From a virus (lineage: Duplodnaviria; Caudoviricetes), in the IMG/VR virus record IMGVR_UViG_3300037264_008235, positions 1,466-65,465 of that record: 64,000 bases of DNA; one strand, given 5' to 3'. A program made the translations under genes and the position numbers. The notes below the pieces were generated by a model. That model did no database searches, was not told the origin of the DNA, and was given only the letters and a program-made list of their open reading frames with translations. The stretch's first letter is position 1. Each line of letters starts with the position of its first letter. Positions 21,493 to 63,658 of this stretch are shown piece by piece.

Positions 21493-22395
21493 TCACGTCT
21501 TCTCCCTCCTGTGCTCCTCGACCAGGGCGCGGATCGCGGGGTGCTTCGGCGTCTTCCGCTCGACCAGCTCCGCGCCGTACTCGTCGACCGCCGGCAGCTT
21601 CGAGAGGTCGACGCCCGGCTTCAGGATCAGCGGCGTCCGGAACCCCTTCCACGCGTCGCGAATCACGTGCTGCGGACGCCCGTAGCGGCGGGACGTCTTC
21701 ACGACTCCCGGCCAGGCGCGCTCGAGGCTCCGGGCCATCTTCAGGCGCCCGTCCCCGGAGTAGAGCGCCTCCGTGTTCCCTCCCTTCACGGTCATAGTCG
21801 TCATCTTCCAGGCGAGGAACACGTTGACTAGGATCGTGCACCACCCGCCGGCGAGGACCTGGAGGCAGAGGTCCGCATCGTCGTTGTACTCGAACCGCCA
21901 GCGGAACGGAGCCGCGTGGTTGACGAGCGTACAAGAGTAGACGTGAGCGTTCACGAAGAAGGGCGGGACCCTCGACCGGTTCGGCGCGAACATGTAGTAG
22001 TTCAGGCCCGAGATCCCGACGTTCTCGTAGCGGTCCGTGAGGTCCTCCGCCACGCGGAGCGCGAGCCCGGCCTCACACGGGACCTTCCTCGCCTTCCAGC
22101 GCCGCCAGAAACCGGAGATGTTGTCGTCGAGCTGCCAGTGCTTCGCGGCGCCGGACGCTTCCGCGTGGTCACGGATCCAGTTCCGCGCGCGGAGGAGCCC
22201 GTCCTTCGCTCCCGGATCGTTGTCCCGAGGGAGGCAGACCACGCGCTCCGCCCCGAACCTGCGCGCGTAGTCTTCCCGCTCGCGCGGCTGGACGACGAGC
22301 AGGAAAGGCACCGCATCCCTGAGGAGCGCCTTGGCCGTCAAGCAGACGTCCGCTCTCCCCGCGGACGGGATGTAGACCGGGTAGCGCGGGTTCAC
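21493..22395 (-). CDS. TET-associated / GREB1-like glycosyltransferase (putative DNA modification)
   Basis: PVYIPSAGRA, RARNWI.DH, HWQLDDNI, VYSCTL, YNDDADL.LQVL, KGGNT motifs. Confidence 0.8.
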   Translation of the reverse strand: MNPRYPVYIPSAGRADVCLTAKALLRDAVPFLLVVQPREREDYARRFGAERVVCLPRDNDPGAKDGLLRARNWIRDHAEASGAAKHWQLDDNISGFWRRWKARKVPCEAGLALRVAEDLTDRYENVGISGLNYYMFAPNRSRVPPFFVNAHVYSCTLVNHAAPFRWRFEYNDDADLCLQVLAGGWCTILVNVFLAWKMTTMTVKGGNTEALYSGDGRLKMARSLERAWPGVVKTSRRYGRPQHVIRDAWKGFRTPLILKPGVDLSKLPAVDEYGAELVERKTPKHPAIRALVEEHRREKT

Positions 22396-24789: not shown

Positions 24790-27700
24790 TCATTCCTCAC
24801 CCGGCTCTCGGTTACGTTCGCCGGGACCCTCCGACCAGTGAGCGTCTTGCGTCGCGAGCGCGATACCGCGGTACTCGATCTTCCGGCCCGAGTGGCGGGA
24901 GGATTTCCGCTTCTCGAGCCCGCGCTCGGAGAGGCGGAGGCTGAACGCGGTCTGGGTCAGCGGGTCCTCTCCGCGCTTGAGAGCCCAGTTCCTGTAGTCG
25001 CCGTACAGGTCTGAGGCGAAGGCGGCGGCGTGGGGGGAGAGGGCGCAGCGGTCGGTGATCCACTCCCCGACGACGTCCTGTTCCGAGCGGTACTCGGCGG
25101 TGGCCTCCCGGACGGCCTCCGGATCCCGGAGCCCGCCGGCGAACCAGGCGACCGCGCCGCGGACGATCCAGGCGAGGATGCCGGGCGCCTCGGCGCGGAG
25201 CTTCTCGGGCAGCTCCGGGTCGCGCTCGGCCTCCGGGACGACGACGGAGAACGGGATCAGGCGGATGCGGCGCCAGATCCCGACGTCGGTGCCGCGGACG
25301 TCCGGTTTATGGTTGGCGGCGAGCCAGACCTTGTGGGTCGGCTCGAAGGACCAGAAGTCCTCCCGCATCCGCCTCGCCTTGATCAGGTCCCCGCCGGTGA
25401 TCTCCTTGACGATGGCCTCGGCCATCGCGCGGCCCTCCCCGACCTCGATGGTGGAGACGAGGCGCTTGCCGTGCAGGTCGGCGAGCTCGGTCGGGTGGTG
25501 CTCGCCGCGCTTGGCCAGGAGGAGTTCCGGGGGGGCCTTGTCGGCGTAGTCGGTTCCGAGGACGTGCTGGAGCGCGCCGAGCCAGGTGGAGTTGTGGGTC
25601 GGGACCATTCCCTCCCCGACGAGGTAGAGGTGGGAAGGGGAGTCGACCTCGACGCAGCGGACGGGGACGGGAGCGACGGGGTAACAGGCGACGACTGACC
25701 GGAAGAGCGGGAGCGAGCGCGGGCGGCAGGCGCCGAGTTTGCGGGGCGAGGAGAAGACGTCCAGTCCGGGGACGGTCGTGAAGATCACGCGGAACTTCGG
25801 GCCGTGGTCGACGCCGTTCAGGCGCGCACGGCCTTCGGAGAGCGTCGGGCGGAGGCCGAGGGAGCGGGCCAGCTCGAGGACGCCGTTGGCCAGCGCGCGG
25901 GAGGTCGAGCAGTACTCGCATTGCGCCTGCCGCTTGAGCGCGTGGCCGTCGGAGTCCATCAGTCCCTGAAGGAGCGCGAGTCGCTGTCGGGCGGAGGCGC
26001 GCAGGTAGGCGGGCGGGACGTGTTTGTTGTCGAGGACTTCCGCGCGGGCGAGCTTGGCGCGCGCGGAACCTCCGCGCATTCCGCAGCCGTAGCGGCGTTC
26101 CGTGGTGCGGAACGTAAGTGTCCGGCCTCGGCCCTTCACTCTCCCGAATGAGCAGAAGTACCCGGCGTTGGAGAACCGGCCGGCGACGTGGCCGGAATCG
26201 TCCTCGTGAGTAGCGATCTGCGGTCCTCCGGTCGAGCCGTTGCCGAGCCAGTAGCCGAGGACGTACGGGTCGAGCGGGAGGTCCGCGTCCGGCAGCGTTA
26301 GGGCGCCGGCCATCGCGACGCGCCAGCGGTACTCGGTCCCGCCGCGGCAGGCTCCGGTTGTGGGCCGGACGCGGACGACGACGTTGTCGGCGATCTCTCG
26401 AGTCATCCGGGTCGATTCCCGGCCGACGTAGTCGGAGACGCGCCACTCGTGCTCGGCGTCGGCGACGACGGAAGTACCGTCGGAGAATCGGACGCGGAAG
26501 CAGGGTCGGTCCGTCCACGTATCGGAGAGCGCCAGGACTCGGCAAGGCACGCCGCGTTCATCGAATACGAGATCTCCTGGCCGGAGCGCGCCCTGCGTCG
26601 TCCACCCCGTAGGAGTCGGAATGTAAGTGTTCAAGCAGCACGCTTTTCCGTTGGCGCCCGTCCCGTAGCAGAAGAAGAGGGCGTGGTCGCGGACGGAGCC
26701 GGTGGCGGAGTACCCGGCGGCGCGCTGTAGGTACTCGATCAGGAGGCGGTTCGGTTCCCAGGAGGTCCCCTCGGTCGTGACCAGCTCGCGGCCGAAGATC
26801 CGGTCGAGGAACCGTTCCCAGATCGGCGCGGGCGCGGCGGGGTCGAAGGGAGTCGGGCAGAGCTTGGTGATCATGTCCGCCTTGGCGTGCGGGCGGAGGG
26901 CGCCGGAGCGGAGGTCGACGACGCCGTTGGGGCAGCAGAGGGCCCAGGGGTCGCGGTCGAGGAGGTCGGGGAGGACGGCGACGCGGGAGCGGGCCATCTC
27001 GGCGGCGTTGCTCGATCCGGCGCGGGAGAGGGACTTGACCGCCCAGCGGGCGAGGGCCTTGGCCTCGGCGGGAGTCGCGGCGTCCAGGGCCTCACGGAAG
27101 ATGCCGCGGACGGAGCGGAGGGCGCGGCGCTCGATCTCCCCGGTCCGGTCGGGGCACCAGCGGGCGCCGTCCCAGGCGAGCCACTTGTTCCACGGGTAGC
27201 AGAAGCGGAGGTCCTCTCCGTGGTCGCGCACGAGGCGGGCGGCGTTGCCGGAGTCGGAGAACCGCTCGCTGTCCGGGCCGGGGAGGGGGGCGGGGGTCGC
27301 GGCCGTCGCCGGGGCGGTCCCGTTCCCGCCGGCGTCGCCGGAGCCGGCGGTCGCGTGCGGGCGCGGAGCGCCGAACCCCTCTCCGGCGAGGGCGCGGGCG
27401 GCGGCGCGGAAGTCGCCGCCGTGCTCGAGCAGGGAGAGGACCTGGAACGGGCTGTAGGCGTGGCGCGGCTCGAACGGTTTCCAGGAGGGGGAGAAGACGT
27501 AGAGGAGCGGGACGCCGTCGATCTCCCGGACGGTGGCGTCGATGCCGCGGGTGCGGGCGCCCGGGCGGCGCCAGTGCTCGATCCCGCCGGCGGCGGAGCG
27601 GGCGAGGACGGCGCCGCGGCGCTCGAGGAGGGCGCGGACGTTCCCGCGGCGGTTGTAGTCGTCCCCGGGGCGGTCGGTCCGGTCCGAGCGGGCGGAGCCG

Positions 27701-28353
27701 GACTCGACCTGCCGCTCGCTGGAGCCGGCCCGGCCGGCGACGCCGGCGGCGACGAGGCGGGCGGTCCGGGTGGGTTCGGGGAGGAGGACGCGGAACGCGC
27801 CGGTCCGGGCGACTCCCTGGACGGTGGCGCGGGGCGAGTAGAAGAGGCGGGCGCGGTCGAGGACGGGGGTCTGGTCGACGGAGAGGCCGCCGGAGTCGCC
27901 GAAGGGGAGGAGCTCGTGCACGGCGGTCTCTACGAGGAGCGCGGCGCCGCGGGCGGCGTCGTCCTGGAGGTCGCCGTCGGGCTCGGGCTCGTCGAGGACG
28001 AAGACGGCGCGGAGCCCGCGCGGGGTGCGGTGGGAGAGGTTGAGGAGCGGGGCCAGGAGGCGCTCGGCGGCGGCGGCGACGTTCTCCGGGACGGCGGAGT
28101 GGACCCACTCGGACTCGCCGGCGGGGGGCGGGGTCAGGTAGTCGAGGTCGACCACGACGGCGGAGGAGGAGCGCCAGGCGTCGCGGGAGCGGCGGTCGCC
28201 CTCGAACTCGAAGGGGGCCCACCAGGCCTCGTCGCCGGCGTGGGCGCCGACGAGGGAGGCGAGCGAGCGGACGGGGTCGGCGGGGTCGAGCGGGACGCGG
28301 CGGCCGTCGGGGCGGCGGAGGCCGAGGCCGAGGGTGACCGCGCGGGGTTTCAA
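24790..28353 (-). CDS. Primase-helicase (AEP-like N-terminus, D5/P4-type SF3 helicase) with intein
   Basis: VVDLDY..SHRTPRG; SDSGNAARL..WLAWDGARW; GTGANGK/ST; KEITGGD; ANHKP; IWRRIRLIPF; TTG start with RBS. Confidence 0.88.
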   Translation of the reverse strand: MKPRAVTLGLGLRRPDGRRVPLDPADPVRSLASLVGAHAGDEAWWAPFEFEGDRRSRDAWRSSSAVVVDLDYLTPPPAGESEWVHSAVPENVAAAAERLLAPLLNLSHRTPRGLRAVFVLDEPEPDGDLQDDAARGAALLVETAVHELLPFGDSGGLSVDQTPVLDRARLFYSPRATVQGVARTGAFRVLLPEPTRTARLVAAGVAGRAGSSERQVESGSARSDRTDRPGDDYNRRGNVRALLERRGAVLARSAAGGIEHWRRPGARTRGIDATVREIDGVPLLYVFSPSWKPFEPRHAYSPFQVLSLLEHGGDFRAAARALAGEGFGAPRPHATAGSGDAGGNGTAPATAATPAPLPGPDSERFSDSGNAARLVRDHGEDLRFCYPWNKWLAWDGARWCPDRTGEIERRALRSVRGIFREALDAATPAEAKALARWAVKSLSRAGSSNAAEMARSRVAVLPDLLDRDPWALCCPNGVVDLRSGALRPHAKADMITKLCPTPFDPAAPAPIWERFLDRIFGRELVTTEGTSWEPNRLLIEYLQRAAGYSATGSVRDHALFFCYGTGANGKACCLNTYIPTPTGWTTQGALRPGDLVFDERGVPCRVLALSDTWTDRPCFRVRFSDGTSVVADAEHEWRVSDYVGRESTRMTREIADNVVVRVRPTTGACRGGTEYRWRVAMAGALTLPDADLPLDPYVLGYWLGNGSTGGPQIATHEDDSGHVAGRFSNAGYFCSFGRVKGRGRTLTFRTTERRYGCGMRGGSARAKLARAEVLDNKHVPPAYLRASARQRLALLQGLMDSDGHALKRQAQCEYCSTSRALANGVLELARSLGLRPTLSEGRARLNGVDHGPKFRVIFTTVPGLDVFSSPRKLGACRPRSLPLFRSVVACYPVAPVPVRCVEVDSPSHLYLVGEGMVPTHNSTWLGALQHVLGTDYADKAPPELLLAKRGEHHPTELADLHGKRLVSTIEVGEGRAMAEAIVKEITGGDLIKARRMREDFWSFEPTHKVWLAANHKPDVRGTDVGIWRRIRLIPFSVVVPEAERDPELPEKLRAEAPGILAWIVRGAVAWFAGGLRDPEAVREATAEYRSEQDVVGEWITDRCALSPHAAAFASDLYGDYRNWALKRGEDPLTQTAFSLRLSERGLEKRKSSRHSGRKIEYRGIALATQDAHWSEGPGERNREPGEE
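25591..26643 (-). mobile_element. Class 3 intein (351 aa) with LAGLIDADG homing endonuclease
   Basis: Inserted in P-loop GK^ST; starts ACCLNTYIPTPTGW, has HEW, VRCVEV, ends PTHN; YVLGYWLGNG and LLQGLMDSDG motifs. Confidence 0.92.
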
Positions 28354-28724
28354 TCTTCCTCCTCGTCGTCGCGGAAGTCGGTCTCGCCGCGCTTCTCGAT
28401 GATCTCTACGCACTTGGCGCGCTGCTTCTCGGAGAGGGAGCGCCCGGAGCCGACCTGGCGGGTGATCGAGTCGGCGAACTCGGATTCCCAGTCGGAGAGG
28501 CCGCCGTAGTCGGCGAGCTGGTCGGAGAGGTCGCGGTCGGGCCAGCCGGCGGGCCCGGCTGGCGCGCCGGGGCGCGGGCCGGCGCTGGCGAGGTTGTCCG
28601 GGTCCTGGCGGGCCCAGGAGAGGAAGCGGCCGCAGGCGCGGCACTCCTCGCGGAGGTGGGCCGTCCCGTCCGCGAAGGCTTCCCAGCGGACGCGCGTCCG
28701 CTCGTGAGCGCAAGATCCCGACAA
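28350..28724 (-). CDS. Hypothetical Zn-ribbon protein (start uncertain)
   Basis: HLREECRACGRFLSW; WESEFADSI. Confidence 0.5.
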   Translation of the reverse strand: MSGSCAHERTRVRWEAFADGTAHLREECRACGRFLSWARQDPDNLASAGPRPGAPAGPAGWPDRDLSDQLADYGGLSDWESEFADSITRQVGSGRSLSEKQRAKCVEIIEKRGETDFRDDEEED

Positions 28725-28888
28725 GCTGACCGCCCTCGACCGCCGCCGCCGTTTCGATCTGCCGGGTCGCCCCGACCCCGCCGCCGCGCCTCCTCCGGAC
28801 CGCCCGGACCGGGGGGAGCGCCGCCGAATATAACACCTGCGCGGGAGAGAAGTGGTAACCGGAGGCGGGCGGGGGCGCGCGCGGAGCG

Positions 28889-29128
28889 TCACGGCGACTC
28901 CGTCCGCGGAGTGGCGACGGGTGCCTCATCGCCGTAGGGATACGTCTGGTAGCGGGAGAACTCGTAGACGTCCTCGTTCCCGCGCCGGCGCCGCTCGTAG
29001 AAGTGCCAGACGTCCGGCCCGTAGCAGGAGGCGGGGAAGACGACGAAGGGCGTGGCCGGACGGCCGGCCCGGAACTCGATCCAGCAGCCGTCGTGCGGCC
29101 CGCCGAAGACGCGCCGGGAGCGGGTCAC
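28889..29128 (-). CDS. Hypothetical protein
   Basis: FGGPHDG motif, coupled start. Confidence 0.45.
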   Translation of the reverse strand: MTRSRRVFGGPHDGCWIEFRAGRPATPFVVFPASCYGPDVWHFYERRRRGNEDVYEFSRYQTYPYGDEAPVATPRTESP

Positions 29129-32952: not shown

Positions 32953-33297
32953 GTGAAGACGTATCACGGCCACAGAGAGAACGGGTGTCTGAACGTGTTC
33001 GTGACCGCGGCCGGCCTGAAGCGGCCGCTCAAGCATCATGTCCACCACTCGCCGGACGGTTTCGAGTGCGGGTACGGCGGGTCCGGCCCGGCGGACCTCG
33101 CGCTCGCGCTCGCGGCCGACGCGATCGGGGCGGAGCGGGAGCGGGTGAGAATCTTTCAGGGAGAAGTCGGGCGCCGAGCCTGGGACGCGCACATGCGGGT
33201 CAAGGCGGAACTGGTCACGACGCTGCCCAGGGACGGCGACTGGACGATCTTCGAGAGTGAGGTCCTGGCCTCGATCGCGCGCGTGGAGCAGAAATGA
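32953..33297 (+). CDS. DUF6166-like protein
   Basis: HSPDGFECGYGGSGPADLALAL. Confidence 0.7.
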   Translation: MKTYHGHRENGCLNVFVTAAGLKRPLKHHVHHSPDGFECGYGGSGPADLALALAADAIGAERERVRIFQGEVGRRAWDAHMRVKAELVTTLPRDGDWTIFESEVLASIARVEQK

Positions 33298-33571
33298 GGA
33301 CCGGCGGCGGGGCCGACTCGGGATCCGGTCTGCTCGGAGTAACGCCCCGTCAGGCTTCTCGGGACCTCTGGCGTCCCCGCCGCCGCTTCCTTTCCGGTAT
33401 TCCCGGAGGTCCGCGCGCCGTCCCCGGCGCTCGGTCTGTCCCACGGCCCGGTCTCTCCGGGCGGTCGCGGGCCTCCTCTCTGTTCCTCCAGTCGCGCCGC
33501 GTTCCGGCTTCCTCTTCCGTCCGGAGCGCGAGTCGGTACAATACCTACCAGGCGGCGGCGGCTGGTTCGAC

Positions 33572-35611
33572 ATGACGTCCACGACTGCGGCGGCGTCCCA
33601 CTTGCTCGACACCTGCGGGCGGTTCCTCTCGCTCGGCCTGACCAAGGAGGGCCGGCGCTTCGACGCGTCGGTCCGCCTCCTCGCCACGGGGGAGCAGGAC
33701 CCGTCTCCGCCGCTCCACCTCGTCCGCTCCCTCTCCGACCTCGACGAGTCCCGCTCCTACGTGAAGGGCCGGCACCCGAAACCACGCTGGGCCGTCGCCG
33801 GGACCTGGGTCGCCGCCGCCGCGCTCCGCTCGGCCTGGGGCGAGCTGGCCCGGTTCCGCGGCGTCCGGTTCAAGGACGGGACCGAGCGGCCGGCCGCGGA
33901 GGCGGAGGCGCTCTGGCGCGCCTGCCTCGCCCGCGTCGACGCGTGGGAGGACCGCCCGCTGATCGTCGCCGAGTTCAAGGGCGCCGGCGTGGTCCCGGAG
34001 GTCCCCGGCTTCGAGCAGCCGGAGGGCGCGGTCCTCGGCGCCCACCAGATCGCGTCGCTCGCGTTCCTGGACGGCCGCTCCGCGCTCCTCTTCCAGGACA
34101 AAGGGACCGGCAAGACGGCCGTCGCCGCCGCGCTCGCGTCCCTGATCGCGCGGCGCCGCGCCGGGAAGAGTTCGCGCCTGCCGGGCGACGCGCGCGAGAT
34201 CGGGACCCGCGTCCTGGTCCTCTGCCCGCCCCAGGTCCGGACCAACTGGGTCGCCGAGATCCCGCGGTTCTGCTCCGTCCCGTCGCTCGCGCGCGTGCTC
34301 CGCGGGGACCGACTCGCGCGCGCCCGCCAGCTCGCCTCCTCCGTCTTCTGGTCCGACCTCTTCCCGGCGGCGCTCGCCTCGTTCTTGATCTGCTCCTACG
34401 AGACGGCCGGGACCTCGACCCTCGAGGACCTCCTCCGCGTCGAGTGGGACCTCCTGGTCTGCGACGAGTCCCACGCGTTCAAGGACCCGTCCACGCGGCG
34501 GTGGCGGACGGTCCGCGCGCTCCGCGACCGGAGCCGGCAGGCGCTCGGCCTGACCGGGTCCCCGATCGGGAACAGCTTCGCGGACCTCTGGACGCAGTTC
34601 GAGCTCTGCGGCTCCGGCGAGTCCGGGTTCATGAGCTCGCGCCACTTCCGGAAGCGGTACGGGAAGTACCTGCCGGTCGCGGGGGTCCCCGGCGTCGAGC
34701 GCCTCGTCGGCATGAAGAACGTCCCCGAGCTGCAGAAGACGGTCGCGCGCCTGGCGTTCGTCCTGACGAAGCCGGAGGCCGGCCTGTCCCTGCCGGAGAA
34801 GATCCGCGACCAGTGGGAGGTCGGGCTCGGCCCGCGCGCGCGCGCCGCCTACGAGTCGATGCGCGAGTTCCTGGTCGTCCGGCTCGCCGAGGACGAGGCC
34901 GACGCGCGCGCCGCCGGCCGCGTGCTCACCGTCGAGTCCTCCCTGGTCAAGCTGCTCCGCCTCGCGCAGATCACGTCCGGGCACGTCGCCTGGGATCCCG
35001 AGTTTCCCGCCGGAGAGGACGGCGAGCTCGAGGAGCGGACGGTCGAGCAGCTCGACGACCCGAACCCGAAGGTCGAGGCGGTCCTCGAGATACTGGGCGC
35101 CGAGGACCGGGACCCGCAGGGGAAGACGATCGTCTGGGCCTGCTGGCGCGAGGACCTCCGCGCGCTCTCCGCGCGCCTGGACGCGGCCGGGATCGACCAC
35201 GTCTCCTACCACGGCGGCGTGGACTTCGACGACCGGGAGGAGGCCGTCCGGCGCTTCAACGAGGACCGGCTCTGCCGCGTCTTCGTGGCGAACCAGCAGA
35301 CCGCCGGCGAGGGCCTGAACCTCGTCGGCTACGACCTCAAGAACCCGCGGGGGTCCCGGACCTACGCGGACCATGAGATCTTCTTCTCGCAGGGATGGAG
35401 CTCGATCATGCGTTCCCAGGCGGAGGACCGGGCCCACCGGCGCGGGACGCGCGTCCAGCTCCGGATCACCGACCTCGTCGCGCCCGGGACGATCGACGAG
35501 GAGATCCGCGAGCGCGTGACGGAGAAGCTGGAGACCGCCGAGCGGCTGACCGACCTCCGCGGTCTGCTCGACAGCGTCCTCCGGAAGTCGCTGGGAGGGC
35601 CCGACGAGTGA
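33572..35611 (+). CDS. SNF2-family helicase
   Basis: DKGTGKT, CDESH, LTGSP, GEGLNL, QAEDRAHRRG. Confidence 0.88.
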   Translation: MTSTTAAASHLLDTCGRFLSLGLTKEGRRFDASVRLLATGEQDPSPPLHLVRSLSDLDESRSYVKGRHPKPRWAVAGTWVAAAALRSAWGELARFRGVRFKDGTERPAAEAEALWRACLARVDAWEDRPLIVAEFKGAGVVPEVPGFEQPEGAVLGAHQIASLAFLDGRSALLFQDKGTGKTAVAAALASLIARRRAGKSSRLPGDAREIGTRVLVLCPPQVRTNWVAEIPRFCSVPSLARVLRGDRLARARQLASSVFWSDLFPAALASFLICSYETAGTSTLEDLLRVEWDLLVCDESHAFKDPSTRRWRTVRALRDRSRQALGLTGSPIGNSFADLWTQFELCGSGESGFMSSRHFRKRYGKYLPVAGVPGVERLVGMKNVPELQKTVARLAFVLTKPEAGLSLPEKIRDQWEVGLGPRARAAYESMREFLVVRLAEDEADARAAGRVLTVESSLVKLLRLAQITSGHVAWDPEFPAGEDGELEERTVEQLDDPNPKVEAVLEILGAEDRDPQGKTIVWACWREDLRALSARLDAAGIDHVSYHGGVDFDDREEAVRRFNEDRLCRVFVANQQTAGEGLNLVGYDLKNPRGSRTYADHEIFFSQGWSSIMRSQAEDRAHRRGTRVQLRITDLVAPGTIDEEIRERVTEKLETAERLTDLRGLLDSVLRKSLGGPDE

Positions 35612-37864: not shown

Positions 37865-39225
37865 GCTACGCGACCTTCCTGGAGCGAAAGTCGAACGTCG
37901 GGGCACGCGAGGGCTTCGATCCGATCTGGATGCCCGACTTCCTCTTCCCGTTCCAGGTCGCACTTGCTGAGTGGGCGATCCAGCGCGGACGTGCCGCGAT
38001 CTTCGCGGACTGCGGCCTGGGCAAAACGGCGATACAACTCGTGTGGGCCGAGAACGTCGCCCGGAAGACCGACGGCCGCGTGCTCCTCCTGACCCCGCTC
38101 GCGGTCGCGCAACAGACCATCCGCGAGGCGGAGAAGTTCGGGATCGAGGCGCACCGCTCGGTTGCCGGGGAGTTGCGGGGGCGCATCGTGGTCACGAACT
38201 ACGAGCGCCTCCACCACTTCAACCCGGAGGACTTCTCCGGAGTCGTCTGCGACGAGAGCAGCATTCTCAAGTCGTACGACGGGGTCCGACGCGCCGCCAT
38301 TACCGGGTTCATGCGGAAGACGCACTACCGCCTCCTTTGCACTGCGACAGCGGCACCAAACGACTACGTTGAGCTGGGCACGTCCAGCGAAGCGCTCGGG
38401 CATCTCGGGCACGTGGACATGCTCAATCGGTTCTTCGTGAACAACCGGAACAACTCGGCTGTGGGTGGGCGCCACCACCGCGAGACGATCCAATGGCGCT
38501 TCAAGGGACATGCGGAGGCTCCATTCTGGCGCTGGGTCTGCTCTTGGGCGCGCGCGTGCCGAAGCCCCTCCGACCTCGGATTCGAGGACGGGTCGTTCAT
38601 GCTGCCACCGCTCAAGGAGCGCGAGCACGTGGTCGAAGCGCGGACGCTGCGCCGCGGCGCCCTCTTCGCGCTTCCAGCGGAGAACATGCAGGAGGAGCGC
38701 GAGGAGAGGCGACGAACCATCATCGAGCGGTGCGAGAAGGTTGCAGAGCTGGTGCGCGGGAACGCGCCCGCTCTGATCTGGTGCGGTCTCAACGACGAGG
38801 GGGACTTACTCGAATCCATGATCCCGGACGCCCTCCAGGTGGCTGGCGGAGACTCCGACGAGGCCAAAGAGGAACGCCTAACCGCGTTCGCTGAGGGTCG
38901 CGTCCGCGTGCTCGTCACGAAGCCCAAGATTGGAGCCTGGGGGCTGAACCTTCAGCGGTGCGCGCACGTCGTCTTCTTCGCCACGCACAGCTTCGAGTCC
39001 TACTACCAAGGGGTCCGTCGGTGCTGGCGATTTGGGCAGACGCGCCCGGTTCTCGTGGAGACGGTGGCGACCGAGGGGGAGGCGCACATCTTGGACAACA
39101 TGCGACGGAAGTCCGCTCAGGCTGACCAGATGTTCTCGCAACTGGTCGCGCTCATGGGCGAGCAGCTTTCGATTGGGAGGCGACTCGTGGGAACCATCGC
39201 AACGGAGACACCGGCGTGGCTGTAG
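37861..39225 (+). CDS. SNF2-like helicase associated with a methylase
   Basis: FADCGLGKT, CDESSILK, TATAAPND, WGLNLQ, YYQGVRRCWRFGQ. Confidence 0.88.
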   Translation: MSYATFLERKSNVGAREGFDPIWMPDFLFPFQVALAEWAIQRGRAAIFADCGLGKTAIQLVWAENVARKTDGRVLLLTPLAVAQQTIREAEKFGIEAHRSVAGELRGRIVVTNYERLHHFNPEDFSGVVCDESSILKSYDGVRRAAITGFMRKTHYRLLCTATAAPNDYVELGTSSEALGHLGHVDMLNRFFVNNRNNSAVGGRHHRETIQWRFKGHAEAPFWRWVCSWARACRSPSDLGFEDGSFMLPPLKEREHVVEARTLRRGALFALPAENMQEEREERRRTIIERCEKVAELVRGNAPALIWCGLNDEGDLLESMIPDALQVAGGDSDEAKEERLTAFAEGRVRVLVTKPKIGAWGLNLQRCAHVVFFATHSFESYYQGVRRCWRFGQTRPVLVETVATEGEAHILDNMRRKSAQADQMFSQLVALMGEQLSIGRRLVGTIATETPAWL

Positions 39226-40184
39226 CCGAGCAGATCGTGACCGACCGCTTCGCACTCTACCTGGGCGATTCGATCGAGGTCCTGGCGGACTTGCCCGAGG
39301 AATCCGTCCACCTCAGCGTCTACAGCCCGCCGTTCGGTGGCCTCTACCACTACAGCTCCGACGATCGCGACCTGTCCAATTCGAGCGACTATGCGACCTT
39401 CTTCGAGCACTACGGCTTCCTGGTGCGTGAGAAGACGCGGGTGACAATGCCCGGACGGATGAGCGCGGTCCACGCGATGGACATCCCGTCTGGGAACACG
39501 GGCAACGACCACCTGCGCGACTTTCCGGGGGACCTGATCCGGCTCCACGAGCGCGAAGGCTGGCACTACGTCGCGCGCTACCACGTCTGGAAAGAACCGC
39601 TAGGTGTCAGGAACCGGACGTTGGCGAAGAACCTCGCGCACAAGGCGATTGTGGAAGACTCCTCGCGCTGCTCGTGTGCCAGCGCGGACTACCTCCTGAT
39701 CTTCCGGAAGCACGGGACGAACCCGGTGCCGATCGCGCACCCGCACGGGCTGATGGACTACGCGGGCGAGCGGAAGGTGCCGCAGTACCTTCTACGCTAC
39801 CGGGGCTGGCGCGGCAGCCAGATCGAGAACCGCTACTCGCACTGGATATGGCGGCAGTACGCGTCGGCCTTCTGGGACGACGTGCGCCTGGATCGCGTGC
39901 TCCCGTTCCGGCCCGCCAAGGACGAGCAGGACGAGAAGCACGTCCACCCGCTCCAGCTCGACGTGATCGAGCGCGCCATCGTCCTCTGGAGCAATCCGGG
40001 AGAGACCGTGCTCACCCCGTTCATGGGTGTCGGGAGCGAAGTCTTCGGCGCCGTGAGCCTCGGGCGCCGCGGCATCGGCGTGGAACTGAAGTCGAGCTAC
40101 TTCCGGCAGTCGGTGCGGAACCTGGAGCTCGTGGGCGTCGCAAAGGATCAACAAGCGAGTCTGTTTCATGACACAGCCGAGTAG
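39216..40184 (+). CDS. DNA N4-cytosine/N6-adenine methyltransferase (beta class)
   Basis: SPPF catalytic motif, HVHPLQL, VLTPFMGVGS SAM motif. Confidence 0.9.
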   Translation: MAVAEQIVTDRFALYLGDSIEVLADLPEESVHLSVYSPPFGGLYHYSSDDRDLSNSSDYATFFEHYGFLVREKTRVTMPGRMSAVHAMDIPSGNTGNDHLRDFPGDLIRLHEREGWHYVARYHVWKEPLGVRNRTLAKNLAHKAIVEDSSRCSCASADYLLIFRKHGTNPVPIAHPHGLMDYAGERKVPQYLLRYRGWRGSQIENRYSHWIWRQYASAFWDDVRLDRVLPFRPAKDEQDEKHVHPLQLDVIERAIVLWSNPGETVLTPFMGVGSEVFGAVSLGRRGIGVELKSSYFRQSVRNLELVGVAKDQQASLFHDTAE

Positions 40185-55988: not shown

Positions 55989-56378
55989 TCAGAAGTCCCC
56001 GCCGTGGACGAAGACGTTGAAGGTCTCCGCGTTGTGGGTCGAAGCCCGGAGCGAGTAGCCAGTCGGGAGTACCAGCGGCTCGGTCGGGACGAACTCGGTT
56101 GAGAAGGCAGCGACCGTCGTCGAGGGCGTGGTCGCCGCGACGAGCAGTTCTTTCCAGAGCCGCGCGTTGGTGCCGTTGTGGATGAAGAGCCGGACGACCC
56201 CGTCCGTCGTCGTCCCGGTCGCCTGGACGCGGACGTACTCGATCCGCCCGCCGTCGGAGCCCGGCGTGTAGATGGTCGCGATCGTGCCGGTCCCGTCCCG
56301 GTCCGGATTCGCGACTGAGACCTGGCCGACCGCGGCCACGGGCGTCAGGGTGAAGATCGGGGTCGTGTTAGGGGGCAT
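55989..56378 (-). CDS. Tail-associated beta-sandwich protein
   Basis: ATG at 56378: MPPNTTPIF...GVVRLF...LVLPTGYSLRA...GGDF. Confidence 0.55.
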   Translation of the reverse strand: MPPNTTPIFTLTPVAAVGQVSVANPDRDGTGTIATIYTPGSDGGRIEYVRVQATGTTTDGVVRLFIHNGTNARLWKELLVAATTPSTTVAAFSTEFVPTEPLVLPTGYSLRASTHNAETFNVFVHGGDF

Positions 56379-59300
56379 CAGACGAACCTTTCCATGGAGA
56401 GGAGCCTCGTGGTCGGGGTGAGCGCGGCGACGCGCCCGAGGAGGGACGCGGGATTGCTCGCGGCGATCTCCTCCCGAAGCATGGTCTGCGTCCGGTCCGG
56501 GTCGAGCGTGATGAGCGGGAAGTCCGGATGGAGCCCCTCGCCCGAGTCGATCGCGGGGTAGAGGCCCACCGCGTTGGCGATCATCCAACCGACGACCGGG
56601 TGGAAGAAGACCGCGCCGAGGTTCCCGGTGACCAGGTTCTCGGGGTAGCCGACGCCGTTCCCGAGGCTCGCGCCGTTGATGCTGACCGTGTTCGCTGGGA
56701 TGCCCAGGGGCGCGTAGGCGTCCGACGGCGTGGGCCAGTCGAGCGGGTCGATCGGCCCCCCGTGGATGCCCGGGTCCGCGAGGTACTGGAGCCAGGTCAG
56801 GTGCGTCGCGGGGTTGAAGCTGGGCGGCCAGAGGCGGTTGCCGGGGCCGCGGGTGAGGTCCCCGATGATCGCCCGGGGCCAATAGATGCACCCGGTAAGC
56901 TCGGTGTAGGACCCCTGCGCGAGAGGATCAGTGTTCCCGCTGATGTTGTCCGGGAAGACGGGTTGCTGCGGGTGCCGCCCGGTGAAGTTGGAGCCGTCAC
57001 CGCTCAGGGGTGTCGCGGTGCCGTCCCTGGTCGTCGAGACCTTGAACTCCGTCGAGGAAAACCCGTCGGCGATGACGTAGTACTTCGCCCCGCTGGTGAT
57101 CCCGCCAGGGATGGAACCGCTTCCGTCCGTGAATCGGACCGGCTCGCCGACGACGAGACCGTGCGCCCCGCCTCCGTCCTTGGTGAAAACCTCGGTGTCT
57201 GCCTCAGCGTCCAGCGTGATCGTGCCAGTTGCTGGCCGAATCGTGTTCGACTCCGGGTCGAGTTCGCCGCGGAGCTTGACCGCCTGCTTCTTGTTCCGCA
57301 GGAACTCAGCGACGTAGGGGTCCGGTGCGGGGCGTTCCTCGTCCCAGCGGACGATCGCCATGATCGAAGGGTGGCCCTGGATGTCGTAGGTGACAGCCGA
57401 CACCCGAGCATCCACCCCCAGGACCACGTCTTCGAGCGCCTCGACGTCGATGATCGGCACGTCGGCGGTCGGCCCAGATCCCTCGTTGAGATTACTCAGA
57501 GCCGACTCGGCGGAGTCGGCAGGGGCGTCCGGACCCTTCTCCGCGTCCTGCTTGCCTTGGACCGCTTCGAGCTTGCTCCAGAGCGCTGCGAGGCCGGAGC
57601 CGATCGCCGATAGACCGTTCTGGACCTTGTTGTTGAGCGCGTCGATTTGCGCCTGCAACCCGCTTGGATCGAACTGGGTGGCGTTCTGGCTGCGTCCACC
57701 GAACGCCCCTCCACCATTCGGCCCGTTGAGCCCCCCGCCGAGCGCCCCGCCGCCGCCGACCGCGCCGCCGACCGCGCGCGCGCCCGCGAGGCACCGCTCG
57801 CGGTCGTTCATCTTCTTCACGACGCGCTCGAGCGCGGCCGCCTTCTGCCGCTGCCGGACGTCCGCCACCGCGCGGTCGAACGCGCCGCCCGTCCCGCTCC
57901 GGTCCGTGGACAGAGTCACGGACGTCTGGTTGGCGGCGAAGTCGTAGACCTCCCGCGTGTGCTGGGCGCGCTCGACGATCACCTTCCCGCCCGAGTGGAG
58001 GTCCACGCACGCCTGGACGCACGGCTCGGCCGCGTAGGCGGGCGCCGGCAACGGCGGCGGCGCGGTCAGGAAGACCAGCCAGTCGAAGCGGAGCCCGCGC
58101 AGGACCAGCTCGCCCGCGTAGCGGACGTCCTTGTACTGCTCGAGGATCTCCTTCGCGTGGTTGCGCGCGGACGCCACGAACTCCGGGTGCTTGAATCCCT
58201 GCGGGTTCGCCGGAGTGGCCGGATCGCCCCGCTCCATCGACTCCTCGTTGATCGCGTCCAGGTAGACGAGGAGCTCGCGCTCGATCCCGAGCCGGCTGTA
58301 GGCGGTCGAGGTCGCCTGGCCCGCGTACCCGAGGTGGACCTCCGCGGAGACGGAGACGGACGGGCTGGAGACGGTCAGGTTGACCGGGTTCCCGCCGCGC
58401 GCGAGCGCGATCTTGAACGCGGTCGCCGTGAAGCCGGAGCTCGCGACGTAGTAGCGGCTGCCCAGCGTCACGCCACCTGGGACGCTCCCGTAGAGCCGGA
58501 CCGGCTGGCCCGCGAACAGTCCGTGGGCGCCGCCCCCGACCTTGACGAACGTGTCGGTCGACGCCAGCGCCGCGGCCGAGAACTCGACGTTCTCCGGGAA
58601 GCGGACGGAGAGCGTCCCGCCCGTCTTCGTGCAGAAGCGGAGCTCCTGGACGGGGTTCACGATCGCGGAGCCCGGCGTCGCGCAGCTCGCCCCGACGTAG
58701 GCGGGCGAGAGCAGCGAGACCAGGTCGAGCGTGACGTTCTGGCCCCCGACGATCCGCGTCTCCCGCACGACGTCCCAGTCGGCCGGGATCATCTGCGCGG
58801 TCGGCGAGCCGCTCGGCCCGAGGAGCTGCTGGACGAGGTAGGCCGCGTCGCAGCACGAGTCGAAGACGTGGGAGAGGGAGACCGGCGGGTACTTCCACGG
58901 CGCCGCCGGGGAGACCGGCGGCAGCGACGTGTCGACCACGAGGTAGGTCCGGAACACGTCCACCGCGGAGCCCCCGGCCGCGGGCGGCCGCGCGGTCACG
59001 GTGATCCGGTGAAGATTCCGGACCTGGAGCGCGGCCCAGCCGGTCGGCCCGCCGCCGTTGATGACGGCCGGCGGCGCCGGCGTGCCCGCCGCCAGGTTGA
59101 GCGTGTCCCGGAAGCTGGTCGCGACGTCCGCCTCCCAGACGGTCGGCGGGCCGACGATCGGGGGGGTCTTGAAGACGTTGAACTCGACCTTCACGCGCCC
59201 GCCGCTCCACCAGAGCGGCTGCCAGGCGAGGGAGCCGATCTGGATGAACGGCTGGTTCGGCCCGCCGCCGTTGACCGAAGTCCCCGTCCAGGTCGAGACC

Positions 59301-60658
59301 GGCGCCTGCGTGCAGGACCAGTACTGCTCGAGGTTCCGGTCCCAGGCGCGGACGATCGCGTAGCGGCGGTCGGCGAAGGCCGGGTCGTTCGGGTGCGGCG
59401 GGACGTAGGTCGAGATCTCCGCGACGAAGCGGGCGACCGCCGGCTCCGTCTCGTCCCGCCGCCCGACCAGCCGGCAGGCGGTGTAGAGCTGGCCGGAGGA
59501 CTCCTTGAACCCGTGCCGGAGGACCTGCTGCTGGTCGTCCACGTCCACGCGGAAGCGGTTCGGGAACCCGGACGCGAGCCCGTTCTCGCTGAGCTGGTCG
59601 AACGGGTCGATCTGGACCCGCATCTCGTCCACGAACGGGGCGTCGAACGTGTGCTGCCAGAGCTGCATCGTCGGGCTCACGCTCTTCACGAGCACGACGA
59701 CCGCTTCCTTGAACGGCCCGTCGAAGACGAGCTTGCCCGGCCGCGGCGCGCGGCCCGCGTACCAGTCGGTCGAGATCCGGAAGCTGGCCGGGAACAGGTC
59801 GTGCGTCCCGCCGGCCACGTAGAACGGGCCGAGGATCGGCGTCAGCTCGTAGAGGTGGCTGAGCTCGAGGTCCTCCCCGATCGCGACCACGTCCGCGCGG
59901 TGGTCCGCGAGCGCCCGCTCGTCGAAGTCCGGGTCGTCCGGGTCCGGGTTGTAGACGCGCCGCGGGAACAGGCGGTTCGGGTCCGGGTTCGGCTCGAGGC
60001 GCGGGTTGTTCGTCACCTGGAAGTTGAGGTCGTCGAACAGGCTCCGGCAGAGGTACTCGACCGCCCTCCCGTCCGAGGTCCGGTTGATCTCCGCGATCCG
60101 GCCGGAGAACAGCGGCTGCCGGAAGTCGCTGGTAACGGTGAACCCGGCGGTCCCGTCCGAGGTCAGGTCGAGGACGGCGCCGCCGCGCGTCTCCGAGATC
60201 TGGAACGTGGTCGCGGTCGCGGCGACGACGTAGTAGGCGCGGAGCGGCTCGATCCCGCCCGGGAGCGCGCCGGCCGCGGCGCGGAACACGACCGGCTCGC
60301 CGACGATGAACGCGTGGGCGACGGCCGGCGGGACGAGCGTCGTCGTGACGAGGTTCCCCGTCGCCGAGCCGGAACATGAGTAGGACGGCGGAAGCTCGCC
60401 CCGCGCGTGGAGCACGCGCGAGTACTCGGAATGGTAGTACGCGACGCGGCGCCCGTAGGCGAAGCTGGCCCGGTCGAACGGGACGTGCTCCCGGAAGACG
60501 AGGAGGTCCCCCTCATTCCGGTTCTTCTCGCACCGGACCATCGAGATCTCGCCGTTGAGCCCGTCGTCCCCGAAGAGGTCGACGACCCGGTCGGCGTCCG
60601 GGCCGGCCGGGGAGGAGATCGACGGCGTGACCCCGACGCGCAGCCGGTGACCGCTCAC
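56378..60658 (-). CDS. Large tail tip / hub protein with three inserted modules
   Basis: 1426 aa; LFSGRI..INR..VEY.C hub-like motif; coiled coil; position after TMP. Confidence 0.6.
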   Translation of the reverse strand: MSGHRLRVGVTPSISSPAGPDADRVVDLFGDDGLNGEISMVRCEKNRNEGDLLVFREHVPFDRASFAYGRRVAYYHSEYSRVLHARGELPPSYSCSGSATGNLVTTTLVPPAVAHAFIVGEPVVFRAAAGALPGGIEPLRAYYVVAATATTFQISETRGGAVLDLTSDGTAGFTVTSDFRQPLFSGRIAEINRTSDGRAVEYLCRSLFDDLNFQVTNNPRLEPNPDPNRLFPRRVYNPDPDDPDFDERALADHRADVVAIGEDLELSHLYELTPILGPFYVAGGTHDLFPASFRISTDWYAGRAPRPGKLVFDGPFKEAVVVLVKSVSPTMQLWQHTFDAPFVDEMRVQIDPFDQLSENGLASGFPNRFRVDVDDQQQVLRHGFKESSGQLYTACRLVGRRDETEPAVARFVAEISTYVPPHPNDPAFADRRYAIVRAWDRNLEQYWSCTQAPVSTWTGTSVNGGGPNQPFIQIGSLAWQPLWWSGGRVKVEFNVFKTPPIVGPPTVWEADVATSFRDTLNLAAGTPAPPAVINGGGPTGWAALQVRNLHRITVTARPPAAGGSAVDVFRTYLVVDTSLPPVSPAAPWKYPPVSLSHVFDSCCDAAYLVQQLLGPSGSPTAQMIPADWDVVRETRIVGGQNVTLDLVSLLSPAYVGASCATPGSAIVNPVQELRFCTKTGGTLSVRFPENVEFSAAALASTDTFVKVGGGAHGLFAGQPVRLYGSVPGGVTLGSRYYVASSGFTATAFKIALARGGNPVNLTVSSPSVSVSAEVHLGYAGQATSTAYSRLGIERELLVYLDAINEESMERGDPATPANPQGFKHPEFVASARNHAKEILEQYKDVRYAGELVLRGLRFDWLVFLTAPPPLPAPAYAAEPCVQACVDLHSGGKVIVERAQHTREVYDFAANQTSVTLSTDRSGTGGAFDRAVADVRQRQKAAALERVVKKMNDRERCLAGARAVGGAVGGGGALGGGLNGPNGGGAFGGRSQNATQFDPSGLQAQIDALNNKVQNGLSAIGSGLAALWSKLEAVQGKQDAEKGPDAPADSAESALSNLNEGSGPTADVPIIDVEALEDVVLGVDARVSAVTYDIQGHPSIMAIVRWDEERPAPDPYVAEFLRNKKQAVKLRGELDPESNTIRPATGTITLDAEADTEVFTKDGGGAHGLVVGEPVRFTDGSGSIPGGITSGAKYYVIADGFSSTEFKVSTTRDGTATPLSGDGSNFTGRHPQQPVFPDNISGNTDPLAQGSYTELTGCIYWPRAIIGDLTRGPGNRLWPPSFNPATHLTWLQYLADPGIHGGPIDPLDWPTPSDAYAPLGIPANTVSINGASLGNGVGYPENLVTGNLGAVFFHPVVGWMIANAVGLYPAIDSGEGLHPDFPLITLDPDRTQTMLREEIAASNPASLLGRVAALTPTTRLLSMERFV

Positions 60659-61965
60659 GGGTTCGGCCCTCCGGTATCGGCGCCCGCCGCGGCCGCGGCG
60701 GGGACGATCCCGAGCGGGCCGGCGGAGTCGGCGGCCGCCTCCGCGGCGTCGGGCCGGATCGAGGTCGGCCAGGACTCAGCGACCGCGGCGGCCGGGAGCG
60801 CCGGCGTGATTCCCTTGGGACGGAAAGTCACGATGCCGGCGGGGACCAGGAACTGCGGGGGGAGGATCAGCCACCCGCGCCGCCGGTTCCGGAGGTACTG
60901 CTCGATCAGGAAGTACCACTGCCAGTTGATCTGGACGAGCGGCTCGGTCGTCGTCTCCGCCGGCTGGACGAGCGACGGCTCGGTCAGCTCGACCGTGATC
61001 CGTTCCCAGATATCCGGGTCGAACACGCCGCGGGTCCGCTCGTCCTCGTTCAGTTTCACGAGAGAGAAGGCCCACTCGCCCTGCCCGTGCCGGCGCCGGT
61101 AGGCCCAGACCGGACTCGCGGGGGGGAGCAGCTCGAAATAGTCGAACTCCCGCCGGAACGGGCGCGCGTAGGAGGCGAACCCGTTGGCGGTCATGGTCGC
61201 GGGCGCGACCTCCCACCAGGGATCGGTCGGCGTCGAGACGAGCGCGACGGCGCTCAGAGCGAACGCCGCGTCCATCACGAGCACCGGATCCGGGGGGTTC
61301 GCTTCGAGTCCGGGGACCGGCGCGCCGTAGTGGAGCTGCACGAGAAGAGTGTGCGTCCCACTGCCCTGGGACGTAAGGTCCACGATCGGGAAGCAGATCA
61401 TCCCCGTCGCGTCTCCGGTCAGGTCGAACTCCGACCCGCCGAGAGTCGCGGAAAGCGTGAAGTTGTCCGCGTCCACGACGACCCGGACGTAGTAGGTCGT
61501 CCCCGCCGTGATCCCGGAGGCGCCGACGCTGCGGAATACTACAGGCTGGTCGACCGCGAGTCCGTGCGCGACCTTGGTGATCCGGTTGTTGGAGGCGGTC
61601 GCCACGACCCCGGCGAGCGCGGTCGGGAACGTGGATACCTTGAAGGTGTCGGCGTCCTTGTCCTGGACGAAGTACTGCGTGCCCTTGGCGGTCCCTCCGG
61701 GAAGCGTCCCGAGGAGGTTCCGGAGCTGGACCGCCTGACCGTCTGCGAGCCCGTGCGCCGCTTCCGTGATCGCGTTCGTGGTCGCGTTCACGTCCGCGGC
61801 GGGGAACGTCTTGGTCGTGACCAAAAAACCCTCGAAGGCCACGGCGACGCGCTCCCAGAGCTGGGGAGGGAAGAACGGTCGCGTGGCGGCGTCCTCCGTC
61901 AGCAGTTTCGTGGTGAGTGCCCACGGGTTCGCGCTGCACTCGCGGTTCCGGTAGACGTAGAGCAC
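60655..61965 (-). CDS. Minor tail protein with two nested modules
   Basis: Position; module inside module. Confidence 0.55.
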   Translation of the reverse strand: MLYVYRNRECSANPWALTTKLLTEDAATRPFFPPQLWERVAVAFEGFLVTTKTFPAADVNATTNAITEAAHGLADGQAVQLRNLLGTLPGGTAKGTQYFVQDKDADTFKVSTFPTALAGVVATASNNRITKVAHGLAVDQPVVFRSVGASGITAGTTYYVRVVVDADNFTLSATLGGSEFDLTGDATGMICFPIVDLTSQGSGTHTLLVQLHYGAPVPGLEANPPDPVLVMDAAFALSAVALVSTPTDPWWEVAPATMTANGFASYARPFRREFDYFELLPPASPVWAYRRRHGQGEWAFSLVKLNEDERTRGVFDPDIWERITVELTEPSLVQPAETTTEPLVQINWQWYFLIEQYLRNRRRGWLILPPQFLVPAGIVTFRPKGITPALPAAAVAESWPTSIRPDAAEAAADSAGPLGIVPAAAAAGADTGGPNP

Positions 61966-61966
61966 G

Positions 61967-63658
61967 CTACGGCCACCTCGCGCTCTTGAAGAGGTCCCCG
62001 GCGCCGCCCGGCTCCCCGATCCCGCCCGCCTCGATCCTCACCCATCGCCTCGTCCCGGAGCCGGTCGAGGTCACGTCGACCGCGCCGCCGCCCAGCGTCG
62101 TCGAGACCTTGAACGTGTTCGCGCGCCCGAGCTTCATCGTCCCGGTCCCGGTCGTTGTCAGGTCGATCTCAGTCCCGGGGCCGGCGACCGCGGAGAGCTT
62201 GACGGTGTTCCCGTCGACGACGATCACGTAGTAGTCGACCCCCTCGAGGAGCGGCGCCGGGAGATACATGCCGTAGAGCCGGACCGCTTCTCCGGACGAG
62301 AACCCGTGAGACGCGATCGCGATCGTGTTCGCGCCGGCGTTCACGTTCGCGTCCGTGAACGTCTTGCTCGTCAGGACTACGTAGTAGGCGCCCTTCGCGT
62401 TCAGGCCCCCCGGCATCGCCGCGCCCGGGTCCGCCCAGAGGACGACGCGGTCGTCGTTGACGAGCCCGTGGCCGGAGGACGTGAGCGTGTCGTCCGTCTC
62501 CGCCGTGAAGATCCCGGTCGTCGTCCCGAACGGGACCAGCCGGGAGAGGTTCTGGATCAGCGGCCGCTTCCGCCCGAGGAAGTTGTAGTTGAGCGTCGCG
62601 AGGCGCCCCGTCTGCTCGTTGATCTCCGCCGTGATCCGCTGGAAGGCGACCTCCCGGTAGAGCCCGACGAACCCGCGCACGTGGAGCCCGGCCGTGTAGG
62701 AGACCGGCTGGCCGGCGATGATCTGCGGCGGCCTCCGGACCGGCTCCTGGAGGACCACGACCCGCCAGTCCCCGTTGCCGGCGACGGTCTCCCGGATCTC
62801 CTCGATCTTGACCAGCTCGCACCCGACGTCGATCCCGCCCGCGTCCTCCCCGTCCCCGCCCGGGTGGTCCTGGAGGTCGAACTTCCCGACGGAGAGCACC
62901 ATCCCCGGGCGGAACCCGACCGACCAAGCGTCGAAGAGGAGCGTTAGGACGTCGGTCCCCCAGTTGACGTTGAGGATGATCGCGTTCTCGAGCGTCGGTT
63001 TCGGGTACTCCCCGTCCCCGTCCGGGACCGAGTAGGGGTTCGGCGTGGCCGTCTTCACGACCTGGCCGTCCCAGAAGACGATCACGTCGCACAGGTAGGC
63101 CTCGGTCCCGAGCCGGAAATCCTGGAGATACCGCTCCGGCCGGTTCGGCGCGGAGAACTCGGGGCTGTTCCCCTTCCCGACCTGGACGAGCGTCGGGTCG
63201 TAGAACCGGAACGCCTCGTGGAGGTCCCTGGTCTGGTCGGAAAGGAACTCGTCCAGGACGAGCGGGCTGGCGAACGCGACGCCGTGCCGGAACGAGTGCT
63301 GGAACGTGAAGTTTCCGGAGCTGCCGTCGATCGCCGGCGCGAGCCCGCGGCTGACCGGGTCGACCGATAGCGCGCCGCGCTCGATCGACGTCGTCTTGAC
63401 CTGGTAGGAGCTGCCCGAGAGCGGGACGGTCGTCCGCCACTTCCCGATCGGGAACGCGCGGTGCCAGGGCGCCGTCGGGAGGACCACGATCCCGATGGTA
63501 CCTTCCGTGACCTCCGCCTCCGGCCAGTTGGTCGGCCGGTCGAGCTGCGGCTGCGGCCACTTCCCGCGAGGGTCGTCCGCGGCCTCCGCGGGCGACCGCT
63601 TGAAGTCGTAGATCAGCAGCCAGGCGGCCGTCGCGCCGAACACCGCGGTGGAGGCCAT
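61967..63658 (-). CDS. Distal/minor tail protein with two nested modules
   Basis: First gene after the probable TMP end; module inside module near C-terminus. Confidence 0.55.
   Translation of the reverse strand: MASTAVFGATAAWLLIYDFKRSPAEAADDPRGKWPQPQLDRPTNWPEAEVTEGTIGIVVLPTAPWHRAFPIGKWRTTVPLSGSSYQVKTTSIERGALSVDPVSRGLAPAIDGSSGNFTFQHSFRHGVAFASPLVLDEFLSDQTRDLHEAFRFYDPTLVQVGKGNSPEFSAPNRPERYLQDFRLGTEAYLCDVIVFWDGQVVKTATPNPYSVPDGDGEYPKPTLENAIILNVNWGTDVLTLLFDAWSVGFRPGMVLSVGKFDLQDHPGGDGEDAGGIDVGCELVKIEEIRETVAGNGDWRVVVLQEPVRRPPQIIAGQPVSYTAGLHVRGFVGLYREVAFQRITAEINEQTGRLATLNYNFLGRKRPLIQNLSRLVPFGTTTGIFTAETDDTLTSSGHGLVNDDRVVLWADPGAAMPGGLNAKGAYYVVLTSKTFTDANVNAGANTIAIASHGFSSGEAVRLYGMYLPAPLLEGVDYYVIVVDGNTVKLSAVAGPGTEIDLTTTGTGTMKLGRANTFKVSTTLGGGAVDVTSTGSGTRRWVRIEAGGIGEPGGAGDLFKSARWP

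Follow-up and report, generated by a model that had tools for sequence, protein, structure and literature searches.

The locus and its phage

The window analysed in this study, a stretch of 64,000 nucleotides, makes up nearly all of a single phage contig (65,465 bp, 71% G+C) that codes for a terminase, a portal, a major capsid protein and a tape-measure protein. The gene of interest, P0002, is the second gene downstream of the tape-measure gene, and its third codon positions have a G+C content of 0.91, like the other genes of the contig. The features that define its setting are as follows.

60655..61965, minus strand: P0002, tail protein gene, open reading frame with translation, 436 aa
60655..61320, minus strand: C-terminal half of P0002 (residues 212-436), orphan, pLDDT below 45
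3..2414, minus strand: tape-measure gene, running off the left contig end
63658..63999, minus strand: short open frame ending at 63658, entering from the right contig end

No exact overlap was found between the two contig ends. The genome is probably circular or circularly permuted, and the contig probably lacks a part of the G+C-rich tape-measure gene. On a circular map P0003 (61967..63658), P0002 (60655..61965) and P0004 (56378..60658) would directly follow the tape measure, in that order. In siphoviruses these three places belong to the distal-tail, baseplate and fibre proteins. Gene order, the only basis of this placement, suggests that P0002 is a distal-tail protein of a siphovirus-like phage. 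No Dit or Tal domain was detected in P0002, P0003 or P0004, and none of them had a Pfam or PHROG match outside the module described below. The portal is at most 27% identical to the portal of any isolated phage.

P0002 consists of about 50 N-terminal residues, a nested pair of modules (residues about 52-211) and the orphan C-terminal region. This last region had no relatives among 1.84 billion representative proteins and no family match, and a search of the ESM Atlas with it gave no usable lead. It is presumably the anchor of the protein or the part that gives it specificity.

Several other genes of the window were noted. A D5-like primase/helicase of 1379 aa (24790..28929, minus strand; D5_N, E = 1e-32) carries LAGLIDADG and Hom_end homing-endonuclease domains at residues 981-1042, and this segment is probably an intein, which would be a second kind of in-frame insertion in the genome. 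At 21493..23927 (minus strand) a TET-associated glycosyltransferase (PF20691, E = 2e-39) adjoins a 511-aa protein with a methyltransferase domain, a pair that may point to hypermodified phage DNA. The plus strand codes for an N6_N4 DNA methylase (39216..40184) and an SNF2 helicase (33257..35611).

A module shared by five proteins of the phage

The module is about 80 residues long and is recognized by the landmarks HGL..G..V, LP.GL, YYV, F.LS, GG, IDLT and G.GTHT. A six-frame hmmsearch of the phage, using a profile of 296 uninterrupted copies from 150 external proteins, found nine contiguous and two split copies spread over five proteins. P0002 and P0003 hold one nested pair each, and the uninterrupted copies elsewhere are found in three proteins.

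56378..60658, minus strand: P0004, 1426 aa, downstream of P0002; three uninterrupted copies at about 60125..60346, 58352..58585 and 56981..57226 (71.0, 54.3 and 64.6 bits)
3163..5118, minus strand: 651-aa protein upstream of the tape-measure gene, with two small genes in between; three uninterrupted copies at about 4795..5034, 3745..3990 and 3406..3648 (71.3, 87.3 and 81.9 bits)
6105..6776, minus strand: 223-aa protein between the capsid and tail genes; one uninterrupted copy at 6366..6611 (69.5 bits)

The PHROG matches of the 651-aa protein are to the module only. This protein is probably the major tail protein, and through it the entire tail tube may be decorated with the module.

Outside this phage the module is widespread. 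A HMMER search of the 1.84 billion representatives returned 1393 proteins that match P0002 at E <= 0.001, all through the module. The 150 external proteins, a subset of these 1393, gave 956 hits, 613 of them full copies; a single protein can hold up to 26 matched stretches, and tandem arrays are the commonest arrangement. No Pfam model of the module was found, only sub-threshold hits to PF12195 (End_beta_barrel) and PF16190 (E1_FCCH). The PHROG matches of P0002 (phrog_7765, phrog_4711 and phrog_9370; E = 6e-11, 5.3e-10 and 3e-9), the last of which is annotated as a tail fiber protein, span residues 118-204 only and therefore describe the module and not the whole protein. PDB sequence searches that used P0002 and P0005 as queries found no hit below E = 0.3.

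One module copy within another in P0002

The original prediction for this gene concerned the span 61340..61820 (residues about 49-209 of P0002), where an outer copy of the module was said to be interrupted by a complete second copy and then to resume. The strings quoted in its favor are all present in the translation of 60655..61965 on the minus strand. Two module profiles were built without either copy of P0002 or P0003, a small one from the seven uninterrupted copies elsewhere in the genome and the external one from the 296 copies described above. Both returned the same parse, in which a full copy stands between an N piece and a C piece, so the proposed interruption and resumption are reproduced by two independent profiles.

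61624..61797, minus strand: N piece of the outer copy, residues 57-114, profile positions 8-64, 61.9 bits (hmmsearch), predicted strands 1-5
61390..61614, minus strand: complete inner copy, residues 118-192, profile positions 7-81, 81.9 bits, inserted after strand 5 of the outer copy
61345..61383, minus strand: C piece of the outer copy, residues 195-207, profile positions 69-81, 5.8 bits alone, last strand at residues 205-209

The C piece consists of 13 residues, VDLTSQGSGTHTL, and picks up five profile positions past the break (64 to 69). The parent pieces cover the profile once and in order (8-64 and then 69-81), and the insert is a complete domain (7-81, 81.9 bits, pLDDT 85-97). When the inner copy was excised and the two halves were rejoined, the external profile matched them as one domain spanning positions 8-81, and the score rose from 66.5 bits for the N piece alone to 78.4 bits (a gain of 11.9), a value inside the range of normal copies (median 72.9 bits, n=296). 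The expectation that the rejoined halves would match the module profile was thus borne out, the match being to one full-length domain. P0002 was aligned with 12 external proteins of the same arrangement; in 10 of the 13 rows, P0002 included, the rejoined outer copy reaches profile position 78 or beyond, and in the other 3 it stops by position 65.

AlphaFold2 was run on the whole of P0002 with this 13-row alignment. The model has a mean pLDDT of 54.9; in blocks of 10 residues the values are 73-97 over residues 51-210 and below 45 elsewhere. Toward the C-terminal side the pLDDT is 92 for residues 191-200 and 78 for residues 201-210 before it drops below 45, and the confident region therefore ends exactly at the end of the outer C piece. 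In the outer N piece the predicted strands are at residues 56-60, 65-67, 78-83, 97-101 and 107-111, and the last strand of the outer copy (205-209) lies in the C piece. In the inner copy they are at residues 117-123, 128-130, 141-144, 157-163, 168-172 and 186-193, with a bridge at 179, at profile positions equivalent to those of the outer N piece. The predicted strand order is the same in the inner copy and in the outer N and C pieces. Structure prediction, a check proposed along with the original prediction, thus models residues 52-211 with confidence.

The model also speaks to where the insertion lies. The outer copy is broken between profile positions 64 and 69, and the inner copy in the model has no strand at positions 62-74, only one bridge residue. 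This is consistent with the earlier proposal of an insertion into a loop, here after the fifth strand in a predicted strand-free stretch. In the model the chain needs at most 5 residues to pass from the last strand of the outer N piece into the inner copy (111 to 117) and about 2 to come back (193 to 195), and with gaps this short at both ends the inner copy would be a side branch tethered twice. The outer C piece is likely to pack against the outer N piece, judging from the pLDDT up to residue 211 and the matching strand order. A complex prediction of residues 52-114 with residues 193-222, run without controls, gave a score of 0.16 (mark, 0.32) and weighs on neither side.

Taken together, these results, from sequence and predicted secondary structure, point, with a probability of about 0.82, to residues about 52-211 of P0002 being two copies of one seven-strand beta-barrel module of about 80 residues in a parent-and-insert relationship. 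The chain would build strands 1-5 of the outer copy, exit through the loop after strand 5, make the complete inner copy, come back within about 2 residues to supply the last part of the outer copy and then, with the outer copy closed, run on into the C-terminal region. The inner copy would be a side branch on two short connections and not the next bead on a string.

Recurrence of the arrangement and alternative explanations

A second nest was found in P0003, the gene upstream of P0002.

62042..62524, minus strand: second nest, in gene P0003 (61967..63658), from hmmsearch with the external profile

Here the N piece covers residues 379-431 (profile 5-54), the inner copy residues 432-510 (profile 3-81) and the C piece residues 513-539 (profile 55-81). 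The break is at the turn between strands 4 and 5, a different loop from that used in P0002. The rejoined pieces score 75.5 bits, compared with 39.9 for the N piece alone, a score matched by none of 1000 shuffled tails and none of 335 other tails. In an AlphaFold2 model of this nest (6-row alignment, mean pLDDT 58.4) the inner copy reaches 72-86 and the outer pieces 26-65, so the P0003 nest is identified from its sequence parse.

The 150 external proteins contain 52 N pieces that stand directly before a full copy, and 26 of the 52 then have a C piece. In these 26 split copies the position at which the outer copy resumes follows the position at which it breaks (Pearson r = 0.83), the two being within 12 positions in 24 of the 26, and this agreement was matched by none of 10000 permutations. 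The break points fall at profile positions 33-45, 50-58 and 62-73. None of these stretches holds a strand in the model of the intact copy; the first is the long loop that separates strands 3 and 4, the second the turn joining strands 4 and 5, and the third the segment that follows strand 5. Counted from the other side, 43 C pieces stand directly after a full copy; for 20 of the 43 the full copies are not immediately preceded by an N piece in the strict sense, although a partial N-like piece lies 11-47 residues upstream in 10 of these 20. Self-nesting recurs in many phage tail proteins and is not a one-off. In four proteins (P0030, P0130, P0147 and P0140) the insert was observed to be two tandem full copies, placed after profile position ~33 of the split copy. 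No clear case of a three-level nest was found among the five architectures that a pattern search flagged in the 150 external proteins. No description of self-nesting of this module was found in open-access full text, supplements aside.

One alternative to a nest is a decayed tandem array, in which three copies once stood head to tail, two strands were lost from the end of the first and the third shrank to the 13-residue remnant, so that the N and C pieces do not make one domain. Tandem growth is indeed the common habit of the module, as the share of full copies (613 of 956 hits) and the arrays of up to 26 stretches indicate, and the 26 of 52 N pieces that precede a full copy with no detectable C piece also count in its favor. 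However, in P0002 this explanation needs two independent deletions with complementary ends (64 and 69), and it does not account for a resume point that tracks the break point in the 26 external cases (r = 0.83; 0 of 10000 permutations). A remnant would not be conserved, yet the motif VDIT..G.G of the outer C piece is aligned in most of the 12 homologues, and the model is confident up to residue 211. A decayed array is therefore considered improbable.

It could also be argued that VDLTSQGSGTHTL resembles the end of the module by chance, through its richness in T, G and S, and that the outer copy is a truncated domain followed by a linker. The C piece does score only 5.8 bits alone. With the 7-copy profile, moreover, the gain on rejoining is only 5.2 bits (53.5 to 58.7), and the best of 300 composition-preserving shuffles scored higher (60.3), which means that the excise-and-rejoin result depends on the better, 296-copy profile. 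With that profile, however, the rejoined score of 78.4 was reached by none of 1000 shuffled C pieces and by none of 220 other 20-residue stretches of P0002. The C piece is also at the right place and in the right register, and homologues keep it, all of which makes a chance resemblance very improbable. A circular permutation, or a tandem pair read in a shifted frame, was rejected as barely credible, since nothing specific speaks for it and a permuted or phase-shifted array would begin with the C piece and end with the N piece, whereas the order in P0002 is the opposite (N, 8-64; full, 7-81; C, 69-81) and the three pieces together cover the profile exactly twice. In this respect the original prediction of a nested insertion, as opposed to a permutation, agrees with the order observed.

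Origin of the nest

Under the parent-and-insert reading, the nest would have arisen when a segment coding for one module was inserted in frame into a loop of a second copy. The fold may tolerate such an insertion because its two ends sit side by side. Within P0002 the inner copy and the outer copy share 39% identity, and any self-duplication must therefore be old. Over the 13 nested proteins the mean identity is 35% among inner copies, 30% among outer copies and 37% between the inner and outer copy of the same protein, values that do not separate inner from outer copies. A poorly resolved tree of the 13 inner and 13 rejoined outer copies requires 7 label changes, compared with a mean of 9.0 after shuffling, and 65 of 500 shuffles were as low as 7. 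The inner and outer copies of P0153 and P0077 form one well-supported clade (SH-aLRT 98), which suggests that this lineage underwent either a self-insertion of its own or concerted evolution. Since insertions occupy three or more different loops, several independent events have probably taken place in the family.

No orthologue of P0002 without the insert, and no close relative of P0002 at all, was found in the databases searched, where no protein shares its C-terminal region; P0037 matches P0002 through the module alone. The sequence TTCCCGA occurs at both borders of the inner copy (61385..61391 and 61622..61628) and codes for Phe-Pro both times. As an insertion footprint this 7-nt direct repeat was rejected, given that 12% of randomly drawn window pairs with this spacing showed a match of that length.

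Implications

What the modules do can be proposed by analogy with other phages. There is about an even chance that they are lectin-like adhesion domains carried on the tube, baseplate and fibre of the tail. In that case a nest would provide a second binding unit, set at a fixed angle, while leaving the path from the N-terminal to the C-terminal side no longer than before. A broader proposal, for which the case is evenly balanced, is that the barrel is a self-inserting building block, one that grows in tandem and also enters at least three loops of its own kind as single or paired copies, giving branched, doubly tethered and rigid arrays of binding domains. If this is true, then the family (1393 cluster representatives and no Pfam model) would be a natural system in which to study how domain insertion originates and is tolerated.

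At the practical level, a very common and unnamed phage tail module can serve both as host and as guest of domain insertion. Domain annotators that expect contiguous domains would miscount or mis-delimit such copies, recording a truncated copy and a stray strand, and models of phage receptor-binding proteins should admit branched arrays besides the bead-on-string form. For the engineering of domain insertions, the family is of use because it offers many natural examples of sites at which one small fold accepts an insert. The nest opens no new kind of biology.

Comparison with known systems

When the P0002 model was compared with the PDB using Foldseek, the top matches were phage endosialidases (phi92, 4hiz; K1F, 1v0e, 3ju4 and 3gvk), which took 7 of the top 8 ranks with E values of 1.2e-3 to 8.9e-3; ranks 1-8 had probabilities of 0.95-0.98. 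The TM-scores of these matches are low because the whole 436-aa model was compared with whole chains. A Klebsiella phage depolymerase and many E1 enzymes followed, the Uba1 and Uba6 chains among the latter with 84-100 aligned columns and an rmsd of 4.5-7.1. Among predicted viral structures there were 78 matches to the model at E <= 0.001, and of the 50 matches listed the named ones were mostly baseplate wedge, tail fibre and tail spike proteins, with many others unnamed or uncharacterised. The two leading Foldseek groups, endosialidases and E1 enzymes, correspond to the domains that Pfam also hit weakly, PF12195 (13.7 bits, E = 0.063, residues 118-172, below the gathering cut-off of 35 bits) and PF16190 (11.9 bits, E = 0.25, below the gathering cut-off of 29.5 bits). 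A profile of the nine window copies, searched against PDB sequences, gave the phi92 endosialidase (4hiz_A) at E = 0.2.

By its predicted structure, then, the fold of the module appears nearest to the endosialidase beta-barrel. That barrel is an insertion into a beta-propeller, and the FCCH domain of E1 enzymes is likewise a barrel inserted into another domain. Since both are inserted domains, they would fit a fold whose termini lie together. The endosialidase barrel (K1F, phi92; PF12195) is the best structural match to the module and a weak sequence match, and it is a small barrel that belongs to a phage host-recognition protein. However, the endosialidase barrel has a propeller as its parent, whereas the module is found in multiple copies, in tail proteins that are not enzymes, and has a parent of its own family. 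The FCCH domain (PF16190) is eukaryotic and unrelated in function, and its likeness to the module is probably one of fold only. A study of K1F describes a polysialic-acid (sialic-acid) binding site on the barrel that affects host discrimination (PMC12632334).

A parallel in use, as opposed to fold, is provided by the lactococcal 936 siphophages. According to a paper on these phages, carbohydrate-binding modules are found on evolved Dit, Tal, the major tail protein and the neck passage, in some cases inserted into a host domain, and their binding was demonstrated experimentally (PMC6669499). Accessory binding modules thus sit on several tail proteins of one 936 phage, and here one module is found in five structural proteins. 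The 936 modules have a BppA-like fold, and there the insert is unrelated to its host domain, whereas the module described here has another fold and a binding role proposed by analogy. On that analogy, the odds that the module binds sugar or acts in adhesion can be put at roughly one in two.

In domain insertion generally, a discontinuous parent carries a continuous insert in one of its loops, and the termini of the insert are adjacent. The nest in P0002 has the same parent-insert-parent layout. It differs from the general case in that the parent and the insert belong to the same family and are nested at three or more different loops. Domain insertion as such is already known; here one family acts as both host and guest, and does so at several loops.
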